From NCBI RefSeq assembly GCF_003334765.1, contig NZ_QOWT01000022.1: a stretch of DNA of 64,000 bases. The stretch is one strand, 5' to 3'. The notes beneath the pieces were generated by a model. That model ran no database searches. It saw nothing but the letters and a program-made list of their open reading frames with translations, and was not told the DNA's origin. This document shows positions 1 through 18,387 of this stretch, piece after piece; position 1 is the first letter of the stretch, and each line of letters starts with the position of its first letter. Position numbers and translations under genes: made by a program. This stretch comes from Escherichia coli (lineage in GTDB: Bacteria > Pseudomonadota > Gammaproteobacteria > Enterobacterales > Enterobacteriaceae).

Positions 1-1325
1 ATCCCGCCATCTGCGAATCCCTCAATATTTCTTATTGCATCCCCCTGTGAAGATAATAATTGTCGCCCGGCATCCACTCCACGTCCGTCATCCCAGCCAC
101 GAATAAATTCACCGCGTAAATCAGGCAATTTATTTGTCGGATAAACCTTTGCCAGTTCCGGGTATTCTTCAGCAGAAAAAGCCGCACCATTGCATTTTAG
201 CCAGCCTGTTGGCGGAGTGGCGGAAGGCCACGGGACAGGCACACCAACGGGTAATGCCGAACCTTCTCCCAAACCAAGGTATGTGAGAAGACCAGCTACA
301 TCCTTTCCACTCAAATTAGTCAGCGTATTGTCCAGCGGTTGTTTACCTGCCAGCGCATTAAGCATTGTCGTGGCAAAGTTCGGATCATTCCCCAGTGCCG
401 CCGCCAGTTCGTTCAGTGTATCCAGTGCCGCAGGTGCAGAACCCACCATTGCCGCAATCGCCGATTTCACAAAAGCCGTAGTGGCAATCTGTGTATTGTT
501 GACCGACTGCGCCGCCGTGGGGGCTGTTGGCGTTCCGGTGAGTGCCGGATTCGACAGCGGCGCTTTCAGTGCCAGCGCATTGTTAATGGTGGTACTGAAT
601 TTCGGGTCATTGTTAATGGCTGCGGCTATTTCTTTCAGCGTGTCCAGCGTGGCTGGCGCACCATTAATCAGGGCCGTCAGTGCCGCCTGAACAAATGCGG
701 TGGTCGCAAGCTGAGTGGTATTATTCCCCGCCGCTGGCGTTGGCGCTTTGGGGGTTCCGGTAAATGTCGGACTTTCTTTGGGTGCATACTGTGAATGCGG
801 GTCCAGTGCGGCAAGATGTTTTGCTATCAGGTCATCCACGTACACCTTCAGCTCCAGTGCCTTGTCATCCACATACTTGCGGGTTGCCAGCACTACAGCA
901 GGGTCGATTTTCAGGATGATATTGCCCGTACTGCTGGTAATCAGCACCATGCGCACGGTCTGGGTACGCCCACTGCCTTCAGCCAGTTGCGGCTTATAGC
1001 TTTCCGGGCAGTTACCCACGGCAATCAATGCCCCGGACTCATCAAACAAGCCCACTTCACGTATCCACCAACCGCCCTCGTTTTCAGGGATCACCTGTTC
1101 AGCAATAATCTGGCTGCTGTTCTGCGGGTCGATATAGAGCATATTCAGCGCAGCCCGGCGTTTCTCATTTACCAGTGCTGTCTGCTTTGCGTCCGGCGTT
1201 GGTAATGTTCCGCCGCCATCGCCGACCGCCATATGGGTAATTTTTAAAGGCACACCGAGCGCGGCGGCGCTGGCAAGTTTCGCCGCGCCAATATCCGTCA
1301 GCAGGGTATAAAATTTTGTGCTCAT
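1..1325 (-). CDS. H: Tail fiber protein (P2 gpH-like). The N-terminal 441 codons are in the window; the C-terminus runs off the left edge.
   Basis: I translated the minus strand from the ATG at 1325 (ATGA overlap with the stop of I). It is open to position 1. The product starts MSTKFYTLLTDIGAAKLASAAALGVPLKITHMAVGDGGG, a P2 H-like N-terminus. It contains tail-fibre repeats and a tail-collar-like segment (PVGVPVPWPSATPPTGWLKCNGAAFSAEEYPELAKVY...LPDLRGEFIRGWDDGRGVD). The ORF track omits it because it is open-ended. Confidence 0.85.
   Translation of the reverse strand, partial: MSTKFYTLLTDIGAAKLASAAALGVPLKITHMAVGDGGGTLPTPDAKQTALVNEKRRAALNMLYIDPQNSSQIIAEQVIPENEGGWWIREVGLFDESGALIAVGNCPESYKPQLAEGSGRTQTVRMVLITSSTGNIILKIDPAVVLATRKYVDDKALELKVYVDDLIAKHLAALDPHSQYAPKESPTFTGTPKAPTPAAGNNTTQLATTAFVQAALTALINGAPATLDTLKEIAAAINNDPKFSTTINNALALKAPLSNPALTGTPTAPTAAQSVNNTQIATTAFVKSAIAAMVGSAPAALDTLNELAAALGNDPNFATTMLNALAGKQPLDNTLTNLSGKDVAGLLTYLGLGEGSALPVGVPVPWPSATPPTGWLKCNGAAFSAEEYPELAKVYPTNKLPDLRGEFIRGWDDGRGVDAGRQLLSSQGDAIRNIEGFADGG
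333..770 (-). repeat. Two tandem ~73-aa tail-fibre repeat units inside H.
   Basis: The units are aa ~186-258 (PTFTGTPKAPTPAAGNNTTQLATTAFVQAALTALINGAPATLDTLKEIAAAINNDPKFSTTINNALALKAP) and aa ~259-331 (ALTGTPTAPTAAQSVNNTQIATTAFVKSAIAAMVGSAPAALDTLNELAAALGNDPNFATTMLNALAGKQP). They also explain the repetitive plus-strand shadow ORFs at 190-794. Confidence 0.7.
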
Positions 1326-1927
1326 GGATTCACTCTCATTGTGTCAATAACATGGACCGCCCCGCCTTCATGCGCGGTGCCGCCGGAAATAATTGTTTCG
1401 TTGATATACGGATAGATCGTGATTTCTTCGCCAAGATAACTGGCGGCTCCCACCCAATGCGGGCCGCTGGTCTGCAGATTGATGGACATGCCGATCATGT
1501 GACGGCTACATGGTTTGGCATCGCTTATCAGTCGCTCAAGTTCCAGATAGGTATCTTCAGTGATGCCCTGATCCTGCACGCCGATATCCAGGCGAAACGT
1601 GCCTGGTGTTTCTCCGGTCTGCCACCACTCAATAATGCGGATCAGAAAGCCGAACGGCTCCACCACCCGCCGCACGGCACTGGTGGTTCCTTTATGCTGA
1701 TGAATATAAAAAGCATCCTTCACCACCTGGCGTTTGACACTTTCCGTCCAGTCCTCGTCCCAGCGATCCACAGAGAACGCCCAGGCGAGATAAGGCAGGA
1801 AACTGACCGGACAGGTCGTTGGATTCCACAAGTCACGCAGCGGCACCTGCAAATCAGAAATCCCGCTGCAGGTTTGCGCCAGTCGGCGCTCCAGTGAAGT
1901 TGAACCCGGTGGCAGCAGACTATTCAT
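1322..1927 (-). CDS. I: Tail protein I (P2 gpI-like baseplate/tail fiber attachment protein).
   Basis: 201-aa ORF (MNSLLPPGSTSLERRLAQ...FLPYLAWAFSVDRWDEDW), typical of the gpI family. It is synteny-locked between J and H, with overlapping stop/start signals on both sides. Confidence 0.85.
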   Translation of the reverse strand: MNSLLPPGSTSLERRLAQTCSGISDLQVPLRDLWNPTTCPVSFLPYLAWAFSVDRWDEDWTESVKRQVVKDAFYIHQHKGTTSAVRRVVEPFGFLIRIIEWWQTGETPGTFRLDIGVQDQGITEDTYLELERLISDAKPCSRHMIGMSINLQTSGPHWVGAASYLGEEITIYPYINETIISGGTAHEGGAVHVIDTMRVNP

Positions 1928-2828
1928 CCGTTCCTCCGTTGGTTACGCTCCACTGCGTACATGATGCCGCCTGTGTTTTGTTCAGGACCACATCCGCCAG
2001 CGGCGAAGCCAGCTCCACACGCTGCACACCCTCAACATGCAGGGCGGCAAAGATGGCGCTACGGCGAATATCCCGGCCAAGACGCGTCTGACTGGCGATG
2101 TACTTCTGCAGACTGGCTTTTGCCGCTGCCATTACCGGCTCTGCTTCCGGTCCCGGATAGAGAAAAATGGTGGCTTCCACGCGGTACGGGATGATTTCTG
2201 CGCTGCGAACCGTCAGACGGTCAGCCACCGGGCGGACGTTCTCACTGTTCAGGGCTTTCTCCACCACATCCAGCAAGTCTTTTTCTGCTGTTCCATCGCC
2301 TTCGCGGCTAAGGACAGTCAGCACCACCTCTGCAGGTGCCGGACTGGTTGCACTGGCATCCGCCACCCGACCGTCGGCGCTTCGGGCATGAAATTCATAA
2401 GCTGCAGTTGGCCCCGCAACTGAAAGCCCTTCAAAGGCTGCAGGCACACGCAGGCGTAACGCTTCATCGCTTTCCATCACAGCTGCAACGGGCGGCACAG
2501 CGTCATCATCAGCAGGCGTCACCGTCAGGCGTTTCACGTTGTAGTTGGCAGCGAGCTGGTCAAGATCGCCGCCCATCGCATAAGCCACCATCACCGCCTG
2601 CGCGGCTTCGTTAATGCGCTGGCGCAGAAGCAACTCACGGTAAGCGTTCTCCTGCAACAATTTGGTGACGGGTTCAGATTCCAGTTCCAGCGTGCGGATC
2701 ACTGCTTCCTGCTCATCTTTCGGATGAAGCGCCACAAATTCTGCCTTGCGTTCGGCAAGCAGCGTCTCAAAGTCCGGCACATCCACAATCTGCGGCGCAG
2801 GCAACTGCGAAAGGTCAATCACTGCCAT
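1920..2828 (-). CDS. J: Baseplate assembly protein J (P2 gpJ-like).
   Basis: Starting from MAVIDLSQLPAPQIVDVPDFETLLAERKAEF, the protein is colinear with my recollection of P2 gpJ through ...HVEGVQRVELASPLADVVLN...GGTDE. The upstream ATG at 2867 was rejected as an extension. 302 aa. Confidence 0.9.
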   Translation of the reverse strand: MAVIDLSQLPAPQIVDVPDFETLLAERKAEFVALHPKDEQEAVIRTLELESEPVTKLLQENAYRELLLRQRINEAAQAVMVAYAMGGDLDQLAANYNVKRLTVTPADDDAVPPVAAVMESDEALRLRVPAAFEGLSVAGPTAAYEFHARSADGRVADASATSPAPAEVVLTVLSREGDGTAEKDLLDVVEKALNSENVRPVADRLTVRSAEIIPYRVEATIFLYPGPEAEPVMAAAKASLQKYIASQTRLGRDIRRSAIFAALHVEGVQRVELASPLADVVLNKTQAASCTQWSVTNGGTDE

Positions 2829-3174
2829 TCTCTGCTCCTGTTGATACGGAAAGGGAAACAGGCACACCGTTATTACGCCGCCCGGTCAGCTCCACCACCA
2901 TTGAACCGTCAAAATCGCTGTTGATGGTGATGGAATCCAGCGTCAGCCGTGGCTCCCAGCGACTCAGCGCCACATACACTGCCGACATGACCTGCAGGCG
3001 TAATGCCGGATTTTGTGGCTGGTCTATCAGTGCCGACAGCAGAGAACCATATTCCCGACGGGCAATACGGCTACCCTGCGGTGTCAGCAGAATGTCCCGC
3101 ACCGACTGGCGCAGATGGTCAATATCAGTAATGGCTTTGCCGCTGGTATTGTTCATCCCGCTATAAAGCGTCAT
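2815..3174 (-). CDS. W: Baseplate protein W (GPW/gp25 lysozyme-like family).
   Basis: 119-aa ORF with DIDHLRQSVRDILLTPQGSRIARREYGS, typical of gpW/gp25. Its start overlaps the V stop as ATGA. Confidence 0.85.
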   Translation of the reverse strand: MTLYSGMNNTSGKAITDIDHLRQSVRDILLTPQGSRIARREYGSLLSALIDQPQNPALRLQVMSAVYVALSRWEPRLTLDSITINSDFDGSMVVELTGRRNNGVPVSLSVSTGAENGSD

Positions 3175-3749
3175 ACCGGACCTCCGGTTGTGTCGCCGCC
3201 TTTCAGGACGCCAGTATGCTGATGCGCATCAACCACAATCCCGTTAGAGCTCATCGCTCCACCGCCCTGGGTAACGCCACCATTGATCACCACTTCGCTG
3301 TTAATACGCGTGCGGTCAGCCTCCAGCATAAACTCACTGGTTTTCAGGGTGATATTGTCAGCGGCCTCAATGACCATTGATTTGATGCCCCTGACATACC
3401 AGCGCCCGGTGGCGGGTTCGTATTCAAACCAGCCGCCGTCAGGATGTTCTGTCACGCAGGCGTCCGCCGACGTCGAAGGTGGCGCGAACTGATTCGAATA
3501 GATGGCGGGTAACGCAAAGGCGGTTTCCAGATTGCCGCCCAGACTCAGCAGCACCACCTGCTCACCTTCCGATGGTCGCCACCATGTGCGGGCATTACCC
3601 GCGCGCAGCGTCAGCCAGTTAATCCAGTTGGTTTCAAGGTCGCCCGTTTTCACCCGACAAAGCCAGTTTTCCCGGTCCACTTCGGTGACTACACCTATGC
3701 GGATCAGATTGGTGATAAGGCGCATGATTTCGGTTAGTTGTGCGTTCAT
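3171..3749 (-). CDS. V: Baseplate spike / assembly protein V (P2 gpV-like).
   Basis: From MNAQLTEIMRLITNLIRIGVVTEVD...WINWLTLRAGNARTWWRPSEGEQVVLLSLGG the protein is colinear with remembered P2 gpV. The ORF-track start at 3992 extends into AT-rich inserted DNA and was rejected. 192 aa. Confidence 0.9.
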   Translation of the reverse strand: MNAQLTEIMRLITNLIRIGVVTEVDRENWLCRVKTGDLETNWINWLTLRAGNARTWWRPSEGEQVVLLSLGGNLETAFALPAIYSNQFAPPSTSADACVTEHPDGGWFEYEPATGRWYVRGIKSMVIEAADNITLKTSEFMLEADRTRINSEVVINGGVTQGGGAMSSNGIVVDAHQHTGVLKGGDTTGGPV

Positions 3750-3852
3750 AGATATATGATGACAGCTGAAAACTTGTTTATAACTTCTTGCAAATTGTGG
3801 TATCGATGGTACAAATTGATAAAAGGATAAAAAACAACCAATAGGTGGATAA

Positions 3853-4659
3853 ATGAGTGTTATGAATCCAATAAGTTCTAATATATTTAATGCTGAATTT
3901 TTAAACACCCCGGCAGCGGCACTTGCCGCATGGATTTCCATTATTGGAGCTGTTATAACTTTGGTGACGATAGTTATAAGAGCACTATTCAAATATAGAA
4001 AATCTCATGATGTAATTTTGAAAAAATCAGGAATACCTGCGTTTATATTGAATTTTTTTCTTATACGAATATCATTAAAAAGGCTGCCTACTATCACATG
4101 GGCTGAAAAATCAATCACGGTTCTCTTTTCACTTCTTTTTTTGTGTGCAATTTATATTTTTGGTCCAGTTTTCATCCAAGCCATTAGAACCCCACCAAAT
4201 AGCACATTGCTTTATTGGATAAAATCCGGTGAATCATTTTATATGTCAAAAAAACTGGCGACTGCAGCTACAATATTAACCACTCCTGATTGGGAAATAT
4301 CAAAGGATGATTGCGAAGAGTCATCCTCTGCCAGTACAGAGAAGTACAAATCATTAACTATCGAACATAAAGAAATTCTTTGTAAACTACTAACCACTGA
4401 TGAAGGGAATGCTTACATTGATGAAGAAGTCAAGAATTTCGTTAAAGACAAATTCTTTATCTATTCCTTTGCCCCAACAACCATATTTATTCTATTATGG
4501 ATTTCTTTGGGTTTTATACTGACCATTCACTATTCTAAAAAAGTTAGGAAATATATTCTGACTGAACAAAAAAATGCAATTCATTGGGCATATGGTGAAT
4601 TCAAGACAGAAGGAATCTATTCAATATATCAAGAGTTAGAACGTAAGACTCACCATTAA
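3853..4659 (+). CDS. Hypothetical multi-pass membrane protein (268 aa), an AT-rich moron in the S/V (P2 orf30) locus.
   Basis: RBS AGGTGG lies 5 nt before the ATG. Hydrophobic segments are AALAAWISIIGAVITLVTIVI, ITVLFSLLFLCAIYIFGPVFIQAI and TTIFILLWISLGFILTI. It is on the opposite strand to the tail operon and its composition is clearly AT-rich compared with the flanks. I recognise no homology. Confidence 0.6.
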   Translation: MSVMNPISSNIFNAEFLNTPAAALAAWISIIGAVITLVTIVIRALFKYRKSHDVILKKSGIPAFILNFFLIRISLKRLPTITWAEKSITVLFSLLFLCAIYIFGPVFIQAIRTPPNSTLLYWIKSGESFYMSKKLATAATILTTPDWEISKDDCEESSSASTEKYKSLTIEHKEILCKLLTTDEGNAYIDEEVKNFVKDKFFIYSFAPTTIFILLWISLGFILTIHYSKKVRKYILTEQKNAIHWAYGEFKTEGIYSIYQELERKTHH

Positions 4660-5047
4660 GACCCAACAAACGACGCTCTGCGTAACGCACTTCCGGTCCT
4701 TTGCGGCTGACGCGATCGCGCAGGCCATAATGGTGAACGCGGGCAATGCGCTGCACCTTACCTTCAAACTGCACGCTGGCAGAATCGGCGCTGGCGGCAG
4801 TTTTCAGGTATTTGGTGGTGCGCAGCTTTGCAAACATCTGACGTTTGATGCGGCCTTTTTTACTGCGCGCCGTGACCTTGCGCGGTTCATAACTGCTGCC
4901 ATCTGGATTGCGCTGCATCCTGATATTCTGCTGCTGTGTCCGGCGCAGTTCCTGCGCCAGCTGGCGCATCATGCGGCTTCTTGCGACTGGTTCCAGATTC
5001 GCCAGTAAGGCACTAAGCCAGTCGTCCACCTTCTGCAGTTCAGCCAC
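4601..5047 (-). CDS. S: Tail completion / virion morphogenesis protein S (P2 gpS-like).
   Basis: 148 aa with ...NIRMQRNPDGSSYEPRKV...KKGRIKRQMFAKL...HHYGLRD..., colinear with remembered gpS. The last ~17 codons lie in the AT-rich insert and overlap the convergent ORF 3853-4659. Confidence 0.85.
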   Translation of the reverse strand: MAELQKVDDWLSALLANLEPVARSRMMRQLAQELRRTQQQNIRMQRNPDGSSYEPRKVTARSKKGRIKRQMFAKLRTTKYLKTAASADSASVQFEGKVQRIARVHHYGLRDRVSRKGPEVRYAERRLLGLNGESYVLTLDILNRFLLS

Positions 5048-5357
5048 GTTTCACCGTCCACATTTCTTCAGGTTCATCGGGTTCTGCTACCGCTTCAACG
5101 CTCGACACACTGCCGTCAGTGCTGACCAGCACACGTTCCGTCAGTTGCAGGTTAAGGCTGATATCACAGACATCGTTGCGCAGAATATCCACCTCAAAGG
5201 TAAATAGTTTTTCCCGTAACGCCGGGTTATTGATGGCATCGGGCTGGTTATCCCGCAGCCACAGCAAAACCGGGGCCATCAGCAGATTCTGGTCGCCGCT
5301 GAAATCCTCAATCACCACGTTCAGGGTGTAACCACGCAGCCCTACGAGTTCACTAAA
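5040..5357 (-). pseudogene. R: 5'-truncated tail completion gene R (P2 gpR-like). The N-terminal ~40 codons are deleted.
   Basis: Residues ...GYTLNVVIEDFSGDQNLLMAPVLLWLRDNQPD...ISLNLQLTERVLV match the central and C-terminal part of gpR. The upstream part of the 152-aa ORF (5358-5498) is merely the antisense of the Q fragment. Confidence 0.7.
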
Positions 5358-5906
5358 GGCAGTATCTTTCACCTGATGGAGCCGGACCTGAACCAGGAAA
5401 TTTACGGCCTGCCGGAATATCTGTCCGCCATTCCGTCCGCCTTGCTGAACGAGTCCGCTACGCTGTTCCGGCGTAAATACTACATCAATGGCAGTCATGC
5501 AGGGTTCATCATGTATATGACCGACGCCGCGCAGAACCAGGAGGACGTGAACAACATCCGCCAGGCCATGAAAAGCGCTAAAGGACCGGGCAACTTCCGC
5601 AACCTGTTTATGTATTCACCCAACGGCAAAAAGGACGGGATTCAGATAATCCCGCTGTCAGAGGTAGCGGCAAAGGATGAGTTTCTGAACATTAAGAACG
5701 TGAGCCGAGACGACATGATGGCTGCACACCGCGTTCCGCCGCAGATGATGGGGATTATGCCGAGTAATGTTGGGGGATTTGGGGATGTGGAAAAGGCGAG
5801 TAAGGTGTTTGTCCGTAACGAATTGATACCGCTGCAAAAGCGAATTAAAGAAATTAATGAATGGTTGAGTGATGAAATAATTTCTTTCCAACCATATGAA
5901 TTATAA
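5358..5906 (+). pseudogene. Q: C-terminal ~half of portal (capsid) protein Q (P2 gpQ-like). The N-terminal half is deleted.
   Basis: GSIFHLMEPDLNQEIYGLPEYLSAIPSALLNESATLFRRKYYINGSHAGFIMY...VFVRNELIPLQKRIKEINEWL is colinear with remembered P2 gpQ residues ~165-340. No Q N-terminus or P terminase gene is present upstream. Confidence 0.8.
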
Positions 5907-5907
5907 T

Positions 5908-5934
5908 AAAGTAGGGCAAATAATGCCCTACTTT
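5908..5934. terminator. Perfect 11-bp stem hairpin between the convergent 'Q and 285-aa genes.
   Basis: AAAGTAGGGCA-aataa-TGCCCTACTTT. It has A/T-rich flanks on both sides and overlaps the stop codon (5928-5930) of the minus-strand gene. Confidence 0.55.
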
Positions 5935-6785
5935 AACCAAATATTATAATCCAATCTTCCTACGTATCTTGAAAAAACAGCCAGAGCAATTGCTTGCCCT
6001 ACACTTGTTAATTCAATTCCTTGATAGTTGCTCTTTGAAAATTTTTCTAAAAATGCAGACACATGAGGGGCAACTAACTTAAGATTTGAAATATATGCAC
6101 TCTTATCTTTTATATCAGTCGGATATTTACTCATAAAATAGTCTTCAACATCCATCCCTAAAAAAGTATTCCATGAACAAGCCCCTGCATATTGAATGTG
6201 ATATATCTGGGCTTGAGACAAATTAAACCCATTAGTATACATTGATTCAAAGTTTCTAAAATTGTGCTCCAACAAATCCAATCGAACACCATTAACAGGG
6301 TCTTTGATCTCAACATTCTTGAGAAGAAAAACTATCGTTATAAGTGATATTTGTTGCTGTGTTAACTTGGGAACGACGGTAACTGCCTCCGTTAAAACTA
6401 TATCTCTAAAATCGTCATTGTTATTGGAGACTCGTTCAACTAACAACTGAGAAAGCACATCCATATTAGCTTTCTTTCCCTTCCTGGCTGATGACTTTAA
6501 TGCCTCAGTCAATGTAGCCTGAACGTCCGGATCGCAAAATTTATCAATAATCAATCTATCAACGTTTTTTGTTAAATCCGAAACGACACGCTCTTCAAAA
6601 TCTTTTGCATTCTCTTGAGCTGCAGCATAAGCAACATCTTTCAATTTTGGAAACTGATTTTCGAAGAGAATGTTGAATAGTTCTCTAACCTCGGAAAACG
6701 ACATCCCTGAAACATTTACATTATTTCCAGCTTGAATTGCATACGAATTATTACCTATTTGTTGCTTTTGCTTATCACTAAACAT
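5928..6785 (-). CDS. Hypothetical 285-aa protein (cargo locus between Q and cos), a candidate defence/Abi component.
   Basis: RBS GGAGGA lies 7 nt before the ATG at 6785 and 9 nt after the stop of the upstream 81-aa ORF. It is AT-rich. The N-terminus is KQQIGNNSYAIQAGNNVNVSG and the rest looks all-helical. I recognise no catalytic motif. Confidence 0.75.
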   Translation of the reverse strand: MFSDKQKQQIGNNSYAIQAGNNVNVSGMSFSEVRELFNILFENQFPKLKDVAYAAAQENAKDFEERVVSDLTKNVDRLIIDKFCDPDVQATLTEALKSSARKGKKANMDVLSQLLVERVSNNNDDFRDIVLTEAVTVVPKLTQQQISLITIVFLLKNVEIKDPVNGVRLDLLEHNFRNFESMYTNGFNLSQAQIYHIQYAGACSWNTFLGMDVEDYFMSKYPTDIKDKSAYISNLKLVAPHVSAFLEKFSKSNYQGIELTSVGQAIALAVFSRYVGRLDYNIWLK

Positions 6786-6794
6786 ATATCCTCC

Positions 6795-7040
6795 TTATTT
6801 TTTATCACCTGTATTTATACAATCAATTTTAATATCACCTCTAGCCTGGACAGCAGTTGAATTATCACCAACTGATTGGCTCATAGAATTATATTTATTT
6901 TTTGTAGTGATAAGTAATCCAGCTAAAGCGCTAACTGCAGCCAAAAATGCAACAATAGAATCAAAACCAGGATCCATATAAAGCCATAATCCTGCAATCG
7001 ATGCCAGCATACATGTAATGACTATTGCAAAAATTTTCAT
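6795..7040 (-). CDS. Small 2-TM membrane protein (81 aa), first gene of a two-gene cargo operon.
   Basis: RBS AGGAGA precedes the ATG at 7040. There are two hydrophobic helices (IFAIVITCMLASIAGLWLY and IVAFLAAVSALAGLLI). The polar tail SQSVGDNSTAVQARGDIKID resembles the N-terminus of the downstream protein. Confidence 0.65.
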   Translation of the reverse strand: MKIFAIVITCMLASIAGLWLYMDPGFDSIVAFLAAVSALAGLLITTKNKYNSMSQSVGDNSTAVQARGDIKIDCINTGDKK

Positions 7041-7063
7041 AAATTCTCCTTCTAATGGAAGTG

Positions 7064-7092
7064 GTTATACCGAAAACAATTTCCTTTTACAA
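7064..7092 (-). promoter_or_regulatory. Candidate sigma70 promoter for the 81-aa/285-aa operon.
   Basis: The minus strand reads TTGTAA-N17-TATAAC, ending ~24 nt upstream of the ATG at 7040. Confidence 0.35.
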
Positions 7093-7107
7093 CCACGCAC
7101 AGCGCGC

Positions 7108-7127
7108 GCTCGTATCCCCGCCACGCC
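7108..7127. other. cos-like site (cohesive-end region of a 186/P2-type phage).
   Basis: The reverse complement reads GGCGTGGCGGGGATACGAGC. As I recall them, the 186 and P2 cohesive ends begin GGCGTGGCGGGGAAAG... and GGCGAGGCGGGGAAAG.... The site is a GC-rich island between two AT-rich loci, at the expected map position next to the end of Q. Confidence 0.5.
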
Positions 7128-7215
7128 TGCCCGCTTTGTGTAGTGGTTTTCATGCACCTGCATGACATAAGTAAAAGCCCGCCAGAACTGGCGGGACTGA
7201 GCAAAAACGATCCTT

Positions 7216-7245
7216 TTGCGATCATTCATTTTCATGCGCTATAGT
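7216..7245 (+). promoter_or_regulatory. Candidate sigma70 promoter for the 3-gene operon.
   Basis: TTGCGA-N18-TATAGT. It would give a ~95-nt leader before the AAGGAG RBS and the ATG at 7346. Confidence 0.3.
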
Positions 7246-7345
7246 CATGCAACAAACGCATACGAACCATATGGTTAGATTACTCATCAAGTCAGATGGA
7301 TTTTCAGGCAGATTGCCACAGCAATTGTAAAGGAGCGAGATTGAA

Positions 7346-8347
7346 ATGGGTGGAGAGACTTCGGCTATACAACGAGTCGCGGGTAAGATTTCTGATGATA
7401 TTTTCTCAGTGTTCAAATGGGATCGTGCCGCTAGAGCGGACATGAATTGGGATTGTTGCCAAGAGGCTCATTCCAAGAAAACACATCCAAGCGATGTTGT
7501 ATTTTTCTACATAGATCCATATGAGGAGGAAATGGTCTATCTCAACACAGACCTCAAAAGCTATGCAGAAGGTACTATTGGGAAAAAAATAGTCGAGGGA
7601 GCTTTAACATCGCTTGCTTTAGCTACCGAGTGTGCAAATGTCAGTGAAGAATGGCGATTGAAATATGTTCATGATGATTCTTTAGGTTATAACGTAAGAG
7701 GGTTATTATTCTTATATAACCATGATAATTTATATGATAAAGACTTCTATGAGAATATTACAAAAAAATTAGATCACTCATCTATAAATTGCCCTCCAAA
7801 CATCAAACTACATTTGCTTGACCCTTATAAAATATCAGATTTGATAAACATATCTTCTGACATAACTAAGTTAATTGGTTCAGGCAAACTTCCTCAACCT
7901 GATAAGTTCACATATTATTATCCAGATCTTTCCCTAACAAGAATAAAGCACCCTATTAATCAGACAACACCTGCAACAATTGAATTATTAACATCACCAT
8001 ACATTATAATAAAGCATGAGGCTTTCAGTTGGCTCAGGGATAAAAACCCTGAGGGATATGTTGTTTATTACAATCAACCGGGGGATTCAGTAGACGAATT
8101 CGTTTACTTCTTTGATATGTTATCAACTTATCAGATATTAACCGAAGGTAAACCAATCGTATTACGCCATTGTCACATTCACCCAAATGAAAATGCCATT
8201 CATCATTTTGAAAGAGCGAAAAAGAAATACAGCACAGACTGGCTCTTAGGCGAGGATGAAAGACTTTTTCTTAAAATTGACTTCGACAAGACAGACAAAA
8301 TTGTTGTTGAATATAATCTTGAACAAATCGGCATGGAGCAACGATAA
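7346..8347 (+). CDS. Hypothetical 333-aa protein with an N-terminal PD-(D/E)xK nuclease-like motif, gene 1 of a 3-gene cargo operon.
   Basis: RBS AAGGAG. The N-terminus has an acidic helix (E4, D17-D18), then HPSD50VVFFY, then VYLNTD69-L-K71, which is the canonical restriction-endonuclease-fold spacing. The gene is AT-rich. I do not recognise the C-terminal ~220 aa. Confidence 0.7.
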   Translation: MGGETSAIQRVAGKISDDIFSVFKWDRAARADMNWDCCQEAHSKKTHPSDVVFFYIDPYEEEMVYLNTDLKSYAEGTIGKKIVEGALTSLALATECANVSEEWRLKYVHDDSLGYNVRGLLFLYNHDNLYDKDFYENITKKLDHSSINCPPNIKLHLLDPYKISDLINISSDITKLIGSGKLPQPDKFTYYYPDLSLTRIKHPINQTTPATIELLTSPYIIIKHEAFSWLRDKNPEGYVVYYNQPGDSVDEFVYFFDMLSTYQILTEGKPIVLRHCHIHPNENAIHHFERAKKKYSTDWLLGEDERLFLKIDFDKTDKIVVEYNLEQIGMEQR

Positions 8348-9426
8348 TGGCTAAAAAACTATATTTCGCAACTGATAAAAATATTTATGATGCATTACAT
8401 CATAAAAGGATAACCGCTGCAAAGTTGCATGAATTATTGTTGAATCGAGGTGTGTTTTTATCACCAGAACTCGACAAGGAAATACTAATCGAGGAAATAT
8501 CCAAACTTCCTCACGGATTTAATGAATTAGAACACATAAAAAAACTGGTCAAAACATATGACCCAAGGGAAAGCACTACTAGTGTGAGCTTCCAAACCTC
8601 AACAAATCAGGCCGAATTAAAAAGTGCTGCTGAAGCACTAAAAAAAACATGCTCCCCTAGTAAAGGTCAAAGCCTGAATATTGTAGCTAAAAAAGATGGC
8701 TCGCTTACAGTAGAATACAAATATGAAGAAATAGACCTGTCTAAAACTGCATTACGTCAGATCGACAAGCGGAATGTTATAATAGAACTTCGCCCTGGAG
8801 CTGACAAAGTTGAAGTACGTATGCCTCAAAACCCCGAGGCAAAAAAAGTTATTGAGAGCTTGCAAAACGAGCTATCTAAAATCAAGTCCGAACCTATCGA
8901 GCGCTTCGAAATATCATTACTAGCAATAACTGATCCTACATTGCGAAGTCAGTTTTTTCAGGAATTAATGAATGGTCTACGCGGTTATGAGACTGATGAC
9001 GTAACAAAAGTCGAATTAAATCGCAGTACTGATGCTAGTGAGGATGAAGACAAGGAAGAAACTATTGATACCGGATTTGTTAAGAAAGCCGTCCTTAATG
9101 GTGAAGGGGTAAATAGTTCAGCTATATTTTCTCAACTACATGAGAAAGGTTATTATATCGGGCGTATTGCATGGTCTTCAAAGCCGACAAGTGGAATTGG
9201 AGACAGAATCAACGTCGAAGCATTTTTCAAAGACTCAGAAAAATGCTGTGACTTTGCCTATCAAATTAAAGGTATAAACAATCAAAAAGAAGACGGTTTC
9301 AATGTAACCATTCGCGCGGCAACGGCACAAGAGAAAAAACATATTAGTGAATTAATTGAGTCCGCCGCTGAAAATGCCTATAATATAATAATAGGATCAG
9401 AGGTGAACGAAGATGAAAAAGGTTAA
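8347..9426 (+). CDS. Hypothetical 359-aa protein, gene 2 of the 3-gene cargo operon.
   Basis: The start overlaps the gene-1 stop (TAATG). It contains an acidic linker, DASEDEDKEE. I recognise no motif. Confidence 0.7.
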   Translation: MAKKLYFATDKNIYDALHHKRITAAKLHELLLNRGVFLSPELDKEILIEEISKLPHGFNELEHIKKLVKTYDPRESTTSVSFQTSTNQAELKSAAEALKKTCSPSKGQSLNIVAKKDGSLTVEYKYEEIDLSKTALRQIDKRNVIIELRPGADKVEVRMPQNPEAKKVIESLQNELSKIKSEPIERFEISLLAITDPTLRSQFFQELMNGLRGYETDDVTKVELNRSTDASEDEDKEETIDTGFVKKAVLNGEGVNSSAIFSQLHEKGYYIGRIAWSSKPTSGIGDRINVEAFFKDSEKCCDFAYQIKGINNQKEDGFNVTIRAATAQEKKHISELIESAAENAYNIIIGSEVNEDEKG

Positions 9427-10096
9427 ATGGCTTAAGTTAAACATACGGCTTGAGTTTGAAACAGCCGTTAGACGTCTTTCTCTTGATTCTTTTACAGAGG
9501 ATAAAGGGAAAGGGTTCATTTTTGATAAAATACGCCATGATTTTGCAAATGGTCGCTTTGTCGAGCGTATTGTTTATCATGATAAAATATTAAGCTTTGA
9601 CGGAAGCGAAACTACCGTTGAAAGAATCGAATATCGCACCACAAATTTTAGCGTGGCTTTAGACTCTCTTCCTGTAATGCAGATTACTAACCCACCCAGA
9701 ACTTTAAAGCCTTTTTCGCAGGCTTTGGTAAAAAATCTTGGCTTAGGTGTTAGTTTGGAAGAAATTGACATAAACCCTATAGACTGGCTTAATGAAATAT
9801 CTTCAAGTGTAAATATCAATTTAACACAACTTGATATTTCAAGGGTTAGAGTTTCTGATTACGCCACAGCTAAAATGCAAATAATTGGCAGCAATGATCT
9901 TAGGAAGTATTATAAAGAAGAATTAGAGGGTAAAAAAATAAGAATTGACAGGCTTGTTTGCTCTGTTAATTCATTAGAATATTCCGGTAAGCTCAAGATC
10001 ACCAATAGCGGCCTTGCTTATATTGATGTTAGAAATGAGAATGAGTTTACGAAAATCGTTTTTGATACGTTAAAAAAAGTCACCCTTCAATCATAG
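9413..10096 (+). CDS. Hypothetical 227-aa protein, gene 3 of the 3-gene cargo operon.
   Basis: The start lies 14 nt inside the end of gene 2. The sequence looks beta-rich. I recognise no motif. Confidence 0.65.
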   Translation: MKKVKWLKLNIRLEFETAVRRLSLDSFTEDKGKGFIFDKIRHDFANGRFVERIVYHDKILSFDGSETTVERIEYRTTNFSVALDSLPVMQITNPPRTLKPFSQALVKNLGLGVSLEEIDINPIDWLNEISSSVNINLTQLDISRVRVSDYATAKMQIIGSNDLRKYYKEELEGKKIRIDRLVCSVNSLEYSGKLKITNSGLAYIDVRNENEFTKIVFDTLKKVTLQS

Positions 10097-10152
10097 ATGG
10101 CTTATAAGGAGTTACTTCACCTAACGCCTCGCCTTACTCGTTGTTCAACCTC

Positions 10153-10183
10153 GTAGGCGTCAGAATCAAGTTCTGACGCCTAC
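10153..10183. terminator. Strong hairpin between the convergent operons (end of the 3-gene operon and end of the dinI-like gene).
   Basis: GTAGGCGTCAGAA-tcaag-TTCTGACGCCTAC, a perfect 13-bp stem. There is no clear U-tract on either strand. Confidence 0.5.
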
Positions 10184-10191
10184 AATGTTTC

Positions 10192-10425
10192 TTAATGCAG
10201 CCAGCTATCGTCCTCCCAGACCTGCTGCATTATTTCCATCACTCGCTTTTTGTCTTCATCCAGTTTTAACCCGCTCAGCTCAACGCCATTGGCGCTGCCC
10301 TTACGGATACGAATTGCTGTTTTGGGATACAGAGGGCGCAAATTACGGTAAAGCTCGGATTCAAGGGCGTCCAGGGTAGACTGGCTAATCTTCTGCTCTT
10401 TATCGATCATTATTTCAATGCGCAT
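10192..10425 (-). CDS. DinI-family protein (77 aa).
   Basis: MRIEIMIDKEQKISQSTLDALESELYRNLRPLYP...IRIRKGSANGVELSGLKLDEDKKRVMEIMQQVWEDDSWL is colinear with E. coli DinI (MRIEVTIAK...ALAGELSRRI...EDKQRISEILQETWE). RBS GAGGTGG. The longer ORF-track start at 10497 was rejected. Confidence 0.8.
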   Translation of the reverse strand: MRIEIMIDKEQKISQSTLDALESELYRNLRPLYPKTAIRIRKGSANGVELSGLKLDEDKKRVMEIMQQVWEDDSWLH

Positions 10426-10435
10426 AAAAGCCACC

Positions 10436-10624
10436 TCAGCTGATGACATCCATTGAGCGGTTGTATTCGTGGGTTCTGATTTTTGCCATGAGTTCATCTG
10501 TCAGTTCAGAAACCCACTGCAGAGCCAGCCCCTTCTCTTCATCACTACACTCACTAGCCGCTACAAGCTTAAGAAAAAAATCAATGCGCTGGAGCTTCAA
10601 AGACTCCAAAAAATAGTCCTGCAT
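10436..10624 (-). CDS. Small hypothetical protein (62 aa), first gene downstream of the LexA box and possibly Tum-like.
   Basis: RBS AGGAGGAAAG precedes the ATG at 10624. The position corresponds to the SOS-controlled tum locus of 186. I did not verify any sequence homology. Confidence 0.5.
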   Translation of the reverse strand: MQDYFLESLKLQRIDFFLKLVAASECSDEEKGLALQWVSELTDELMAKIRTHEYNRSMDVIS

Positions 10625-10665
10625 CTTTCCTCCTATGACACCAAAGCAACACTGTATACATAACC

Positions 10666-10685
10666 ACTGTTTGTATTTACAGTAT
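10666..10685. promoter_or_regulatory. LexA (SOS) box.
   Basis: ACTGTTTGTATTTACAGTAT fits CTG-N10-CAG with the TACTGTATATATATACAGTA consensus flanks. It lies ~40 nt upstream (minus-strand sense) of the 62-aa ORF. Confidence 0.65.
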
Positions 10686-10775
10686 ATAATAATATTACTG
10701 ATGTAAAACGTTTTTTACGTTCATCAGCCTGATATGCCTGGTATTATTAAGAGCACGAATTGTTAACCTGCGTAA

Positions 10776-13190
10776 TTAATACAGGTTCCGCCACTTATCA
10801 TCTTCCTGCAAACGCTGGTTCCGATAGAAGATACGCAGGCCTGCTCCTGACGGAATACTGCCACCACGTAGGAGTAAATCGACCTCTTTCTCGCTGCCAT
10901 CAAATCCTCTGGACTTCAGCTCATAGACGAGCTGCTGTCGCTGATGATCTGTAATTCGCTGTTTGTAGTCTTTACGCCGTTTCAGCTTAACTAGGCGTAA
11001 CCTCGCTGCCAGTTCCCGGCGCTCTTTTTTGCTCATACTGTGCAGGTAATCGTGCAATTCCTTGTCATCCATGCGGGTAATGTCCGTTCTGGTGTCCCCA
11101 TCAGCTGATTTATCTTTATCCTGTTGGTTCAAATTTTCAGCAAGGGGACAGTTATTGCCACGAGTCCAAGGGGCGCAAGCGCCCTGGTCGGCTGCCGCCT
11201 CCTGAACGTCAACGGCTTTACGAACCATTTTCCACTTCACTGCATGAGTGCAGATCTTGCCCTCTGCAATGGGTGACCAGATGCCATAAATACGAATGCC
11301 GTGATCGCCATAGGCGGTCGGCTCTTCGTTGATTTCATAAGCGGTTCTGATGAGGTGATATTTACGGGGAACCAGTACGCCGCCCTGCTTCATGATGTAG
11401 GTGGCAAAACAACCAGCATCAGCAGCAGCCAGAATGGCATCAAGACGCGGGTTATCCAGTACCGGCGCACCTGCTTTTTTGTCACCCTGTTGCCTTGCCG
11501 CCTGACCAGCCAGCAAGCGAAGTTCACGGTAAGCCTGACGCCCCGGAATACCAAAGAAGCGGAATTGCTGAACACGATGCAGAGACGCCCAGGCATTAAC
11601 GTATTCAGCGTTATCACGCAGGGATTTACCCGTTTCCTTGCTGATCTCGCCAGCCAGACCACGCCCGTCAATGTTCTTACTGATGTATTTCGCGATGTAG
11701 CTTGTTGGCGTACCTTTGCGCGGGTTTATCAGCTCAGACTTAAAGCGTGGCCCCGTGTTATTGCCCAGCTCCTCGCGGTCTTCACGGATGGCAAACTTAC
11801 GCAACAATGCAGTAATGGCGCGGCGGTCTTTTTTGCGCATGAAACACAACAGGTGCCAGTGAACTGTGCCGTCATGATGCGGTTCAGCCACCCGCACGCC
11901 ATACCAGCGCAACCCGGCTTTGTGCATAGCCTTACGAAATGCAGCAAACATGCCGACCAGATAATCGCTGCTTTGTCTTACCGTCGCGTTTGTCCAGGTC
12001 GGGTTTGGTCTGCCGTTATTGAGCGTGGAATGGAAACGCGACGGACAGGTGATAGTGTAGAAAACGGCACAGTCACTGCGCATTTCTGCGATAAGCTCCA
12101 GACCTTTAACACAGGCCATCATCTCATTGCGGCGATGCGCCGGGTTGCTGCTGCTGGCGTTTACCACATCCTCCATGTCCAGCGTGTCGCCGTCTTCGTT
12201 CACCAGTTCATGAGAACGGAAAAACTCCAGCGACTTACGGCGCTGCTCACGTTTATGCATCACGGCTTCATAGCTGACATAGGGAGATGCTTTTTTGCTG
12301 ACCAGGCAAACAGCACGCAACTGCTCTTCCCGCCATTCGCAACGCATCTTCCATAATTTCCGGTACCACCAATCGGCGCACAACATACGCGCCAGCGAAC
12401 CCGGAATGAGTTCATAGGGCACGGGTTTACGGCGGTTTCTTTTCCGACGAAGTTGCTCAAACGCAGGCGGGATAACATCCAGTCGCAGGGTTTCTGCTGC
12501 CACCTTTTCCCATGTCTTGCGGATTTCTTCTGGCTTAACATCATCGGTGGCGTACAAATCACCACAAGCGGCATCAAGACACATGCTCATATGCGCAGCG
12601 ACAAGAGTAGACAGGCGTTTCACCTGATCCTGACTCATTTCAGGCAGAATCAGCAGGCCGTCCAGCCCTACATGGCTTGCCATAAAACGAAAAGATGCAG
12701 ATAGCTGGCTGTCGCGTACATGCTCCAGTCGCTCCAAACATGGCTTAATCGTCTCACGCAAATAGCGGGAATAAGCCTTTGGCCTGCCCAGGCTGCTGAA
12801 GTATTCAATACGTTGCATCAGCGGCTTGCTGATATGGGAAGGCTGGGCATTGACGTCCGCCAGAATGACCATATCTGGATTAAAACGCTGCTGCTCATGC
12901 GCCAGCTTTGCCCGACTAATGAGCTTATCCTGCTCCATTTCGCGCTGGACAGGATCACGGGATTCATTAAAGAAATAACGCTCCCAGACCTGATCACTCA
13001 GTGCCTCGCGGCGCAGGTGTTCCTGTTCGTTATCGGCAGCGTACAGAGCGATCAGGTTTGAAAGCGCAGAAACCGGCGCAACTTCCGCCGGGTCCAGATA
13101 AGGGTTAATGGCCTTTTTCGGGCTGTTCCATGAGAACGCTGCGGCAGCCTCGTTAAAGCCGCAGCAGTTGTTCATATCGGCATGGCTCAT
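10776..13190 (-). CDS. A: Replication initiation endonuclease A (P2/186 gpA, HUH rolling-circle nickase).
   Basis: 804 aa. The HUH-type motif is [15 protein letters not shown] and the catalytic Tyr region is [12 protein letters not shown]. Size and position match gpA. Confidence 0.92.
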
Positions 13191-14044
13191 GCACGTACTC
13201 CGTACACGGCAGAACTATCCACGCCACGCGAATAATCAAATCCCACCCAGCAGCGCGGCCCGGAAACAGCAATGATTTCTGTTGCTGATTTACCCTCGCC
13301 AGCTGCCACACCGATGCTGCGTTTTACCTTGATATAGTGGTGAGTAAAATTGCGATACAGCGAACGGATCAGGGATGTATCACTGTTAGAAACAATGACC
13401 GGATGTCCTTCTGATGACCGATGTTCAAGAACGGATGCCAGGTGATACTGGTCATCTTCAGTGAAACCATCAGTGTGATAGCCGGAAAACGTACCGTCAT
13501 ACGGCGGATCGCAATACACCACATCCCCCGCCTTCAACATCGCCAGCGTTTCATCAAAGCTGGCGCAGATAAACGTTGCTCGCTGGGCTTTTTCTGCAAA
13601 TGCGCGAATTTCTTTTTCAGGGAAATACGGATTTTTATAATTACCGTAGGGAATGTTGAAATGCCCGCTCTTGTTATAGCGACATAAACCACGGTAACCG
13701 TGACGATTGAGATACAGGAAATATACCGCTTTCATGAAATCAGTAATTTCAGTTGAGTAATTAAACTCCTGCCTTATGTTGTAATAAGCCCCCCCCCTGT
13801 TTGCGATCTCAAATAAAACTCTGGCGCGAGATATAAACGATTCACAATCAGCAGCAACCTTTTTATAGAGGTTGATTAAATCAGGATTAATATCCGCAAC
13901 AAGATAGCTGGGGTACTCCGTCTCCATCATCACTGCACAGGAACCCGCGAAAGGTTCAACCAGTCGCGGGCCAGCAGGAAGATGCTTTTTCAGTTCGGAC
14001 ATAATGGCGGTTTTATTTCCCGCCCATTTCAGGATGGTGCTCAT
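13187..14044 (-). CDS. dam: Phage-encoded DNA adenine methyltransferase (Dam family, GATC-type).
   Basis: [11 protein letters not shown]..., the SAM motif EPFAGS and the catalytic DPPY motif ([10 protein letters not shown]) are present. The start overlaps the traR-like stop (ATGA) and the stop overlaps the start of A. Confidence 0.9.
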
Positions 14045-14268
14045 ACAGCACCTCCGTTGTAATGTTTGCCTTTCAGCTCTGCGATTTCCTGACAGGTAAT
14101 GCAAAGCTGCACACCCGGAATGGCACGGCGGCGTGCTGGCGGAATTGGCGCTTCACACTCAATGCAAAGCACGCGGGACACGCCCGGCGTTTTGGCACGG
14201 GCAGCACGGATATGACGCTGGCGTTCTTCTTCAACGCGCTGCTGTACGAGATCCATTGCATCAGCCAT
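14041..14268 (-). CDS. TraR/DksA-family C4 zinc-finger protein (P2 orf82-like).
   Basis: 75 aa with CIECEAPIP...CITCQ, four Cys in CxxC...CxxC spacing. This is the usual position upstream of A in P2-like phages. Confidence 0.8.
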   Translation of the reverse strand: MADAMDLVQQRVEEERQRHIRAARAKTPGVSRVLCIECEAPIPPARRRAIPGVQLCITCQEIAELKGKHYNGGAV

Positions 14269-14507
14269 TAGTGGATCTCCTGCGCTTCGTTCTGGATTGC
14301 TTCAGCTGCCACACGCAGCAGTTCAGCCGCTTCAACGTGGTTTAGCTGGCGGGATGTGATATGGCACGCAAGGCTATCAAGGCGAGCTGCCATTGCTTCA
14401 GCTCTTGCCCGACGTTCTTCCAGACGAGCCTCTGTCAGTAAAATATTAAGTCCTGCGTCATCCGGTCCGGTTTTAGTCGAGAGGGTTTCAATATTACGCA
14501 TAATCAA
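14268..14507 (-). CDS. Small early-operon protein (DUF2732-like by recollection).
   Basis: 79-aa helical protein (...ARLEERRARAEAMAARLDSLACHI...VEAAELLR...), coupled to the downstream gene. The family assignment is from memory only. Confidence 0.55.
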   Translation of the reverse strand: MIMRNIETLSTKTGPDDAGLNILLTEARLEERRARAEAMAARLDSLACHITSRQLNHVEAAELLRVAAEAIQNEAQEIH

Positions 14508-14568
14508 TTCTCCTGAATTTAGATAAAGGAATGCCCGGCGGGTTTACGCCATGAATTTCATTAATTGG

Positions 14569-14910
14569 TTAATTCGGCATGGCTAGCCGTCTGGGAAATA
14601 AGCTCACCACTGCACGAAGATGATTCATTACTTTAATCAACTCCCGCTTTTCGTCAGTGGTCAGCTCATTAATGCTGATGCTATGACGTTCAGCTGGAAT
14701 TTTTGCTATAAAGAATATAGCAGCCAGTGCTCGTTTATTTCGTTCATAATTAATATCCCGTGGATCACGCATATCTTTAATAAACCGCTCAAGCTCTGAC
14801 TCAATATTCAGGCCAAAAACTTTCGCCCTTAACTCTGCAATGTGATTAAGTCCATTCAGGCGTTCACCGGGGCTTAATGGAACAGTTGCTGCAGCGCCAT
14901 TAATTGCCAT
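14569..14910 (-). CDS. Hypothetical 113-aa early-operon protein.
   Basis: Clean ORF in the early operon, somewhat more AT-rich than its neighbours. I recognise no motif. Confidence 0.5.
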   Translation of the reverse strand: MAINGAAATVPLSPGERLNGLNHIAELRAKVFGLNIESELERFIKDMRDPRDINYERNKRALAAIFFIAKIPAERHSISINELTTDEKRELIKVMNHLRAVVSLFPRRLAMPN

Positions 14911-14932
14911 ACTTCATATCCCCCAAACGCAG

Positions 14933-15157
14933 CTATCGTTCTTTGTTCTTACGGTAACGCTCAAGAGGAGATACATTTTTTCGTATCGTCTCTTTAACCT
15001 GCTCTCCCCGTAAAAACGTCCCATCCTTTAACGTGAAAAAGTAACTGCCATCGCCCGACAATGACGGATAGCAACAGAGCAAATCATCTTCAGGTACTGA
15101 ATAACTCTCCCCTCTGTAACGAAACTGATAAACCACTTCACTTTCTGCCGCATACAT
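14933..15157 (-). CDS. Hypothetical 74-aa early-operon protein.
   Basis: RBS GGAGAAAG precedes the ATG at 15157. The amino-acid composition is plausible (MYAAESEVVYQFRYRGESYSVPEDD...). Confidence 0.5.
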   Translation of the reverse strand: MYAAESEVVYQFRYRGESYSVPEDDLLCCYPSLSGDGSYFFTLKDGTFLRGEQVKETIRKNVSPLERYRKNKER

Positions 15158-15324
15158 TTGGACTTTCTCCGTTTCCTCGTGGTCAATTCAGACAGCAATT
15201 CATCTTGTGAATGACATGGATGCCAGCGTTTTCCATCCTCACCCGTGATCCAGCCGTGACCGTAGTGCATTGCCGGGCTTTGTTTTACCAGCAGCGATGC
15301 AAATGATGGTTCTTTCGTCAGCAT
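15028..15324 (-). CDS. Fil-like protein (186 fil position). The 3' ~43 codons overlap the next gene out of frame.
   Basis: MLTKEPSFASLLVKQSPAMHYGHGWITGEDGKRWHPC resembles what I recall of 186 Fil. The tail (KVKWFISFVTEGRVIQYLKMICSVAIRH...) looks non-protein-like, suggesting a lost stop codon or an over-extended ORF. Confidence 0.4.
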   Translation of the reverse strand: MLTKEPSFASLLVKQSPAMHYGHGWITGEDGKRWHPCHSQDELLSELTTRKRRKSKCMRQKVKWFISFVTEGRVIQYLKMICSVAIRHCRAMAVTFSR

Positions 15325-15331
15325 AAGCACC

Positions 15332-15841: not shown

Positions 15842-15905
15842 GGTTTTCAACTCCGAACTTATCGCAAAATCGAACTCAGCGTCTTATTGCGAAAATAGAC
15901 GTCTA

Positions 15906-16109
15906 TTAAGCAGACAAAGCATCAACAGTCAGAGCAGCCAGGTTAATCATTACCTTTTCACGTTTTTTGTCTTTACGAAGACGATGACGAGGTAGTCGGC
16001 CATCAGCCAACATGTCGTTAATCGTATCAATAGAAAGGCCAGTCAGTTCGCTATAACGTTCGATTGTGACATGTGGTGTATTCAGAGTAATTGAAATGTT
16101 AGGTGTCAT
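15906..16109 (-). CDS. Apl/Cox-like HTH protein (early lytic repressor of the lysogenic promoter / excisionase).
   Basis: 67 aa, the first gene of the lytic operon and divergent/face-to-face with cI. It has an HTH-like segment, [25 protein letters not shown]. Confidence 0.65.
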
Positions 16110-16824: not shown

Positions 16825-16839
16825 TACCGGGAGGAAACT

Positions 16840-18296: not shown

Positions 18297-18304
18297 CCAC
18301 CAAC

Positions 18305-18338: not shown

Positions 18339-18342
18339 CATT

Positions 18343-18371: not shown

Positions 18372-18387
18372 ATCTAAAACTTATCTA

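Follow-up and report, generated by a model that had tools for sequence, protein, structure and literature searches.

A head-on junction of truncated R and Q genes in an Escherichia coli P2/186-family prophage, very probably the scar of a recent deletion

The R-Q junction

A contig of Escherichia coli (NZ_QOWT01000022.1, RefSeq assembly GCF_003334765.1), of which a stretch of 64,000 nucleotides was analyzed (hereafter the window), carries next to rcdA a prophage of the P2/186 family (Peduoviridae), recognized by Pfam matches and synteny: genes I, J, W, V, S, R ... Q in P2 order are followed by the cohesive-end site cos and gene A, and a 19-nt cos of the GGCG(A/T)GGCGGGG... type lies near the 3' end of Q. 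Between positions 5300 and 5400 of the window, a minus-strand R gene and a plus-strand Q gene, both truncated at the 5' end, abut each other, as seen by Pfam and by nucleotide alignment. This site is very probably the scar of a single, recent deletion of 7,066 bp.

The truncation is apparent from both sides of the site. The Pfam profile P2_Phage_GpR matches the last ~85 residues of a 152-amino-acid open reading frame (ORF) that crosses the site, and only with profile positions 47-133 of 133 (E 3.5e-27), while in the plus-strand frame from 5358 the match to the Phage_portal profile does not begin until profile position 116. The protein of the R remnant (R') corresponds to residues 48-143 of 143, at 97% identity to full-length R, and the Q remnant ('Q) is 99.5% identical to residues 151-343 of the 343-residue portal protein WP_001573372.1. 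In base-by-base alignments, identity to undeleted relatives extends on the R side through 5332 and begins on the Q side at 5329, the overlap being the tetranucleotide TAAC, which is present at both parental breakpoints. These are ...CAGGGTGTAAC|GGTACTCC... in R and ...ATACGGTCTAAC|CACGCAGC... in Q, with seven of eight nucleotides matching over GGTNTAAC (GGTgTAAC / GGTcTAAC); a microhomology of at least 4 bp is expected for only ~0.016-0.018 of random breakpoint pairs in the same DNA. Similar limits were obtained by megablast, with the R/S side matched in phage records only to 5330-5332, and the Q side, in phage records and in 5,426 complete E. coli genomes, only from 5325 on. A gapped tblastn alignment of full-length R across the junction (residues 2-143, 75%) was rejected as a BLAST extension artefact, as ungapped DNA identity ends at 5332.

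The initial annotation, made from the sequence of the window, had proposed a head-on fusion of truncated R to truncated Q in this interval, and the mid-profile starts of the Pfam matches and the alignment to undeleted relatives bear this out. Alignment to related prophages, suggested at the time as the way to define the end points and any microhomology, has given both exactly, and it shifts the join from 5357/5358, as originally placed, ~26 nt further left, to 5329-5332. Accordingly, R homology starts at residue 48 (not ~40) and Q homology at residue 151/152 (not ~165), the peptide quoted for Q, GSIFHLMEPD, representing residues ~161-170. Two ORFs at the site, overlapping head to head, had both been considered chimeric. 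This is true of the 152-residue ORF, in which ~56 codons antisense to Q are in frame with R codons 48-143, while the 176-residue ORF consists purely of Q residues 168-343. R' and 'Q, which diverge from the junction and are left with no promoter and no start codon, are dead fragments. Creation of a new promoter by the junction was rejected, a promoter scan of window 4500-6000 having found no sigma-70-like site.

Undeleted relatives and the content of the deletion

Undeleted counterparts of this prophage occupy the same rcdA (ybjK) site in several RefSeq genomes of E. coli, among them Z1322HEC0001/Z1323HEC0009 (NZ_CP148585/CP148400) and HSP425 (NZ_CM136999), and in comparison to Z1322HEC0001 or HSP425 the window is missing the same 7,066 bp. 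The Z1322HEC0001 copy is 100.000% identical over window 391-5332 (4.9 kb) and 99.976% identical over 5325-17900 (12.6 kb), amounting to 2 true single-nucleotide polymorphisms (SNPs) in 17.5 kb. HSP425, a strain from urine in Brazil, differs by 3 SNPs in the prophage arm and by 4 SNPs in 21.6 kb of chromosomal flank, and is by these counts near-clonal with the window, the flank included. The window is collinear with the undeleted prophages, both arms being in parental orientation. The internal deletion that had been claimed is thus supported, and a resemblance by chance ruled out, by flanks 100% and 99.98% identical to a prophage with 7,066 bp in between. The sibling prophages represent the same phage, with the same integration site, the same three cargo loci and the same CI allele; unlike the window, they keep the 7,066 bp (R codon 1 to Q codon ~152) and do not carry the duplication in the integrase gene described below. 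NZ_CP148585.1 ('plasmid pZ1322HEC0001-3', 55,571 bp; also NZ_CP148400.1) is labeled in RefSeq as a circular plasmid, while its content is the prophage from the middle of gene H plus ~30 kb of core chromosome (rcdA ... ybiU), and it is almost certainly a mis-circularized chromosomal fragment broken at the invertible tail-fibre region.

The prophages of LT883142 (NZ_LT883142) and E47 also hold full R-to-Q modules. Comparison to LT883142 results in a 7,442-bp gap, owing to an extra lysA-like gene that the closest parent does not possess. H3 (NZ_CP028732) was rejected as a reference, the 5,073-bp gap it gives being misleading, since H3 has a 1,991-bp deletion of its own.

An alternative, that R and Q are naturally short and adjacent in this lineage, would draw on the ORFs spanning the site and on nothing else, and we consider it vanishingly improbable: the 99.98-100% identical prophages have 7,066 bp between these genes and encode an R of 143 and a Q of 343 residues, and the Pfam matches start mid-profile in both genes of the window. 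The initial annotation had named full-length R and Q in a natively different architecture as the outcome that would overturn it, and this is not what the relatives possess.

The deleted block comprises R codons 1-46, lysC, lysB, the endolysin gene K, the holin gene Y, X, L, M, N, O, P, the O-P intergenic region and Q codons 1-~152, i.e., the lysis cassette, tail gene X, head-completion gene L, both terminase subunits and the capsid and scaffold genes. The missing genes originally listed were largely the same, lysA being the exception, as it was already absent from the closest parent. No homologues of the ten missing genes were found elsewhere in the 64-kb window. A near-identical undeleted counterpart, collinear arms and the absence of the missing genes from the rest of the window are what characterizes a defective prophage derived by deletion. 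Genes Q, P, O, N, M, L, X, R, Y and K are essential, and the O-P intergenic region holds the divergent late promoters (P_P/P_O) and an activator site, as annotated in the records of P2 and 186. The essential late-gene set (Q P O N M L X Y K R S V W J I H G FI FII E T U D) is thus incomplete, with P, O, N, M, L, X, Y and K absent and Q and R truncated, identifying the element as a defective derivative and not a functional phage. On its own, it would be unable to assemble heads, to cut DNA or package it, to finish tails or to lyse its host; an inability to package or lyse had already been proposed, and the essential-gene annotations of P2 argue for it as well.

Origin and age of the junction

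The proposed mechanism is simple. Two points 7 kb apart in one DNA molecule, one in R and the other in the oppositely oriented Q, would have been joined within the shared 4-bp TAAC, likely by RecA-independent illegitimate recombination (replication slippage or microhomology-mediated end joining), with loss of everything between the breakpoints in a single event. The result would be a locked-in, defective prophage. Alignment to the undeleted parent has revealed no insertion sequence (IS) or other foreign sequence at the junction, ruling out an IS-mediated or site-specific deletion, and it is the microhomology without an IS scar that points to illegitimate recombination at short homology.

The junction is not present in any of the 5,426 complete E. 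coli genomes, of which 1,186 match parts of the query and none has both sides at one place, and the exact junction is absent from the GTDB representative genomes and from the JGI metagenome contigs. The only other record of it is an IMG/VR provirus, UViG_3300045988_157682, 100% identical over 9,518 bp and spanning window 23 to ~18412 (the provirus boundary). With no match among the 5,426 genomes and only 2-3 SNPs separating the prophage from undeleted copies, the deletion event is, judging from these comparisons, private and very recent. At the same time, the chromosomal flank of Z1322HEC0001 is ~1% diverged, versus ~0.01% for the prophage, suggesting that the phage was spreading horizontally until shortly before the deletion.

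Several points weigh against a reading as one recent deletion in a prophage made defective by it. The mechanism, whether slippage or end joining, is read from the microhomology alone, and the loss of function is deduced from gene content. The gene inventory starts at H and extends rightward, as the part of the prophage left of H (G, sheath, tube, tape measure, D, ogr) is outside the window. In addition, the deletion was read from an assembled sequence, in which an assembly error or a minority variant is formally conceivable, and the IMG/VR record, probably this very assembly cut back to the provirus, is no independent confirmation.

A mis-join, or a rare deletion variant in a mixed population, would fit with the lack of an independent record of the junction and with a probable origin of the window in a draft or metagenome assembly, as the window starts in a tail-fibre gene and the IMG/VR provirus contig ends within 23 nt of that start. 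This explanation appears very improbable to us, however: the arms are collinear and correctly oriented relative to the parent, the 4-bp shared sequence is far below an assembler k-mer, so that the join would need spanning reads, deletions at such microhomologies are a normal biological product, and comparable real deletions are found in the finished genomes of the siblings.

The left end of the window cuts through the tail-fibre gene H, and window position 23 is where the identical IMG/VR contig stops. The source contig itself therefore seems to break off here, at an invertible or repeated tail-fibre region, and the left third of the prophage would not have been assembled with it.

Retained genes, sites and cargo

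A large part of the prophage remains outside the deletion (Table 1). The genes I, J, W, V, S, A, Dam, TraR, CII and CI, the genes for DUF6216, the LPO_1073-family protein, the 81-residue protein and Hp1-3, and the DinI-like and Apl-like genes are all full length and encode proteins 87-100% identical to those of H3, CI and the Apl-like gene being divergent alleles relative to H3. At the DNA level, the retained genes are practically the same as in Z1322HEC0001 and HSP425, and the immunity region differs from these copies only by one SNP versus Z1322HEC0001, at 15392. An Rfam scan of window 1-19000 produced zero matches.

Table 1. Features of the prophage and of its junction, in window coordinates.
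Feature	Position	Strand	Remarks
Gene I (baseplate)	1322-1927	-	Full length, 100% to H3 protein; Pfam matches of the I-V group: Phage_base_V and Apex
Gene J (baseplate)	1920-2828	-	Full length, 100% to H3 protein
Gene W (baseplate)	2815-3174	-	Full length, 100% to H3 protein
Gene V (baseplate)	3171-3749	-	Full length, 100% to H3 protein
TGT-N12-ACA motif	3796-3813	-	47-64 nt upstream of V start codon
Cargo locus 1: DUF6216 membrane protein	3853-4659	+	GC (guanine plus cytosine) 34-42%; S/V site, position of P2 orf30, opposite strand
Gene S (virion morphogenesis/tail completion)	4601-5047	-	Full length, 99.3% to H3; Pfam Phage_tail_S 2-147/148
R' (remnant of tail completion/terminator gene R)	5040-5332	-	Codons ~47-143 + stop; first 46 codons and operon promoter lost
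152-residue ORF (chimeric artefact)	5040-5498	-	~56 codons antisense to Q, then R codons 48-143 (96 R residues)
Deletion junction	5329-5332		4-bp overlap TAAC
'Q (remnant of portal gene Q)	5329-5906	+	Codons ~152-343 + stop; start codon, ~151 leading codons and promoter lost
176-residue ORF (non-chimeric)	5376-5906	+	Q codons 168-343, internal ATG start
Cargo locus 2	5928-7040	-	LPO_1073/Vpar_1526-family 285-residue protein (5928-6785), 81-residue protein (6795-7040); GC 34-40%
cos-like 19-mer	7109-7127	-	GGCGTGGCGGGGATACGAG; 15/19 identical to phage 186 cohesive end, expected orientation relative to Q
Cargo locus 3: 3HP anti-phage system	7346-10096	+	Hp1 7346-8347, Hp2 8347-9426, Hp3 9413-10096; tin/old (A-Q) hotspot; GC 32-40%
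Replication endonuclease A	10776-13190	-	Full length
Dam methylase	13187-14044	-	Full length
CII (186-type immunity region, 15332-16824)	15332-15841	-	Open, full length
Apl-like gene	15906-16109	-	Open, full length
CI repressor	16255-16824	+	Open, full length
Integrase (int)	17220-18296	+	Residues 1-343 identical to relatives, last 7 residues replaced
int tandem duplication	18230-18240, 18241-18251		AAGTGGCGACA, two copies
rcdA	18391-18924		Prophage/chromosome boundary just before it

The initial annotation had the immunity and integration regions, gene A, Dam, baseplate genes, cos and cargo as apparently intact, and for I, J, W, V, S, the cargo, the cos-like site, A, Dam, CII, the Apl-like gene and CI this view is upheld, all being full length. 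For the integration region, one qualification is needed. The int gene carries a private 11-bp tandem duplication of AAGTGGCGACA, resulting in a frameshift of the last 7 codons after residue 343, where the relatives have a single AAGTGGCGACA copy followed by AAGTGGCGGCA; the Pfam catalytic-domain match (residues 280-321) is upstream of the frameshift and unaffected. The int-rcdA junction (window 16900-19900, at least 80% query coverage) is present in 1,108 of the 5,426 complete E. coli genomes (~20%), so that the rcdA attachment site is, by this measure, occupied by a P2-like prophage in about one fifth of E. coli genomes. None of the closest of these 1,108 genomes with int beside rcdA has the duplication, all giving 2,990-bp matches.

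The TGT-N12-ACA motif upstream of V is the signature of an Ogr/B-activated late promoter, and the P2 record annotates an activator site at P_V, so the late promoter of the V operon (P_V equivalent) appears to be retained. Gene S, directly downstream of the R remnant, is left with its operon promoter (equivalent of P2 P_O) deleted. No match to the P2 cos 19-mer was found at up to 3 mismatches, and a lineage variant was located by eye in the Q-A interval, where a 1.1-kb cargo cassette separates it from the 3' end of Q.

The three cargo loci have a GC content of 32-42%, versus ~55-58% for core genes. The DUF6216 protein shares its site with P2 Orf30, the similarity of the two being non-significant (E 0.042), and this moron is absent from the otherwise similar E47 and LT883142 prophages. 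Cargo locus 2 is an AT-rich cassette that separates the Q stop codon from cos, an interval of only ~170 bp in P2 and 186; the intact relatives E47 and Z1322HEC0001 carry it as well, and it has no match in PADLOC. Cargo locus 3 is recognized as the 3HP system (Rst_3HP) by full-length PADLOC matches (PDLC03004-03006, coverage 1-333/333, 1-359/359 and 1-227/227, E 1e-157 to 1e-248). Protection against P1 has been described for a three-gene system without recognizable domains from the A-Q hotspot (PMC9122126). Structurally, the three cargo loci, 3HP among them, and the genes for CI immunity, integration and replication are untouched, and they presumably function as before.

The closest well-studied relatives are 186 (NC_001317, Eganvirus) and P2 (NC_001895, Peduovirus), which share with the window lineage the gene order I-J-W-V-(moron)-S-R ... 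Q-cos-(hotspot)-A, as well as 44-48% (R) and 64-65% (Q) protein identity. The TGT-N12-ACA motif upstream of V, an immunity region of the 186 type (CI/CII/Apl-like/Fil) and a DinI-family gene near cos are also shared. Unlike 186 and P2, the window does not possess the lysis-head-terminase block, has DUF6216 in place of orf30 and 3HP in place of tin/old, and carries the additional Q-cos cassette. R-type tailocins (R-pyocins) are similar in combining a P2-like baseplate and tail-fibre module with the absence of head genes, but identity as a tailocin was ruled out: R is without codons 1-46, X and the holin, endolysin and spanin genes are deleted, and the R/S late promoter is gone.

Retention of the cos-like site raises another alternative, that the element, now with a genome shorter by ~7 kb, is excised, replicated and packaged by a P2/186-like helper, as a large satellite with defence genes. 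The reading frames of A, CII, the Apl-like gene and int are open, ori is presumably kept, and in the case of P4 the terminase of the P2 family is known to act in trans on cos (PMC9122126). There is, however, no sign of spread, the junction being known in only one sequence across the complete E. coli, GTDB and JGI sets, and neither satellite-type genes for helper exploitation nor a helper are seen within the window; by its gene content the element has no satellite features beyond the retained cos. Mobilization would, furthermore, depend on a heterologous terminase recognizing the cos variant, and the C-terminus of Int is altered. Such a helper-dependent existence would be highly improbable.

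Sibling lesions and the question of domestication

The initial annotation had interpreted the element as a domesticated prophage retained for its cargo and immunity functions. Under such a scenario, the deletion and the retention of the remainder would have been shaped by selection, the host gaining from the loss of lytic functions while keeping CI immunity along with 3HP, DUF6216 and LPO_1073. Defective P2-like prophages with conserved defence genes have been described, with domestication left open (bioRxiv 10.64898/2026.02.27.708500). The sibling prophages of H3 and HSP425 carry independent inactivating lesions and keep the same cargo, immunity and replication genes, which hints at such a scenario.

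One example is H3, in which the deletion of 1,991 bp has fused a truncated lysC to a truncated M, with a microhomology of no more than 2 bp (extracted stretch 11037-11730). Its tail-fibre genes and tape measure are annotated as frameshifted or incomplete. Another example is HSP425, which has a nonsense codon at portal residue Q97 and in which V codons 1-~51 are fused in frame to D (V'::'D), with loss of W, J, I, H, G, sheath, tube, E, T and U (extracted stretches 7976-9007 and 987-2165 cover both lesions); the fusion is annotated in RefSeq as a 'late control D family protein.' LT883142 presents the reverse situation: an IS5-family element, ISKpn26, has replaced LPO_1073, the gene for the 81-residue protein and Hp1 and has truncated Hp2, while the virion genes are intact (extracted stretch 14620-16731).

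We consider selection-driven domestication unlikely, and as a claim about this element it is unsupported. Domesticated prophages are recognized by the same lesion vertically inherited in many genomes, while the junction here is private (0 of 5,426 E. coli genomes, 0 in GTDB/JGI). With only 2-3 SNPs to the undeleted copies, neutral decay has had no time to act, so that the intactness of neighboring genes is uninformative on selection, and the survival of the remainder after so young a deletion says nothing about it. In addition, LT883142 has its cargo destroyed and its virion genes intact, the sample of lesions is small, and int is itself frameshifted. Classic domesticated remnants are old, vertically inherited and under purifying selection, whereas the element in the window is very young and private to one sequence.

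A more far-reaching version would see domestication in progress, with one prophage repeatedly and independently disabled, within a single near-clonal lineage of E. coli, by different module-scale deletions under strong selection, the cargo being kept, and with the element perhaps mobilizable in trans via cos. The window, HSP425 and the more distant H3 have indeed lost different modules (head/lysis; tail, along with a portal nonsense codon; and lysis/head completion, respectively), while the three cargo loci, CI and the replication gene are full length and nearly or fully identical in all three. This possibility seems doubtful to us, and if true, it would mean strong, repeated selection to disarm the prophage while keeping its cargo.

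Conclusions

Overall, a single recent deletion remains the preferred explanation for the R-Q junction, and what it represents is ordinary prophage decay. Defective prophages of such a kind are well known, and only this particular allele is new. Defective and cryptic prophages are reportedly a general phenomenon in E. coli, and the element in the window is akin to cryptic E. coli prophages in having lost virion and lysis genes with accessory defence genes intact. In terms of annotation, the 152- and 176-residue ORFs are best labeled pseudogene fragments of R and Q and the prophage defective, while the host can still be credited with the 3HP defence cargo and CI immunity as probably functional traits. 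The value of the case is in how cleanly the decay is resolved and dated, with a parent within 2 SNPs, exact end points and a 4-bp microhomology; together with the sibling lesions, it could feed a census of the routes of decay at the very common rcdA prophage site.

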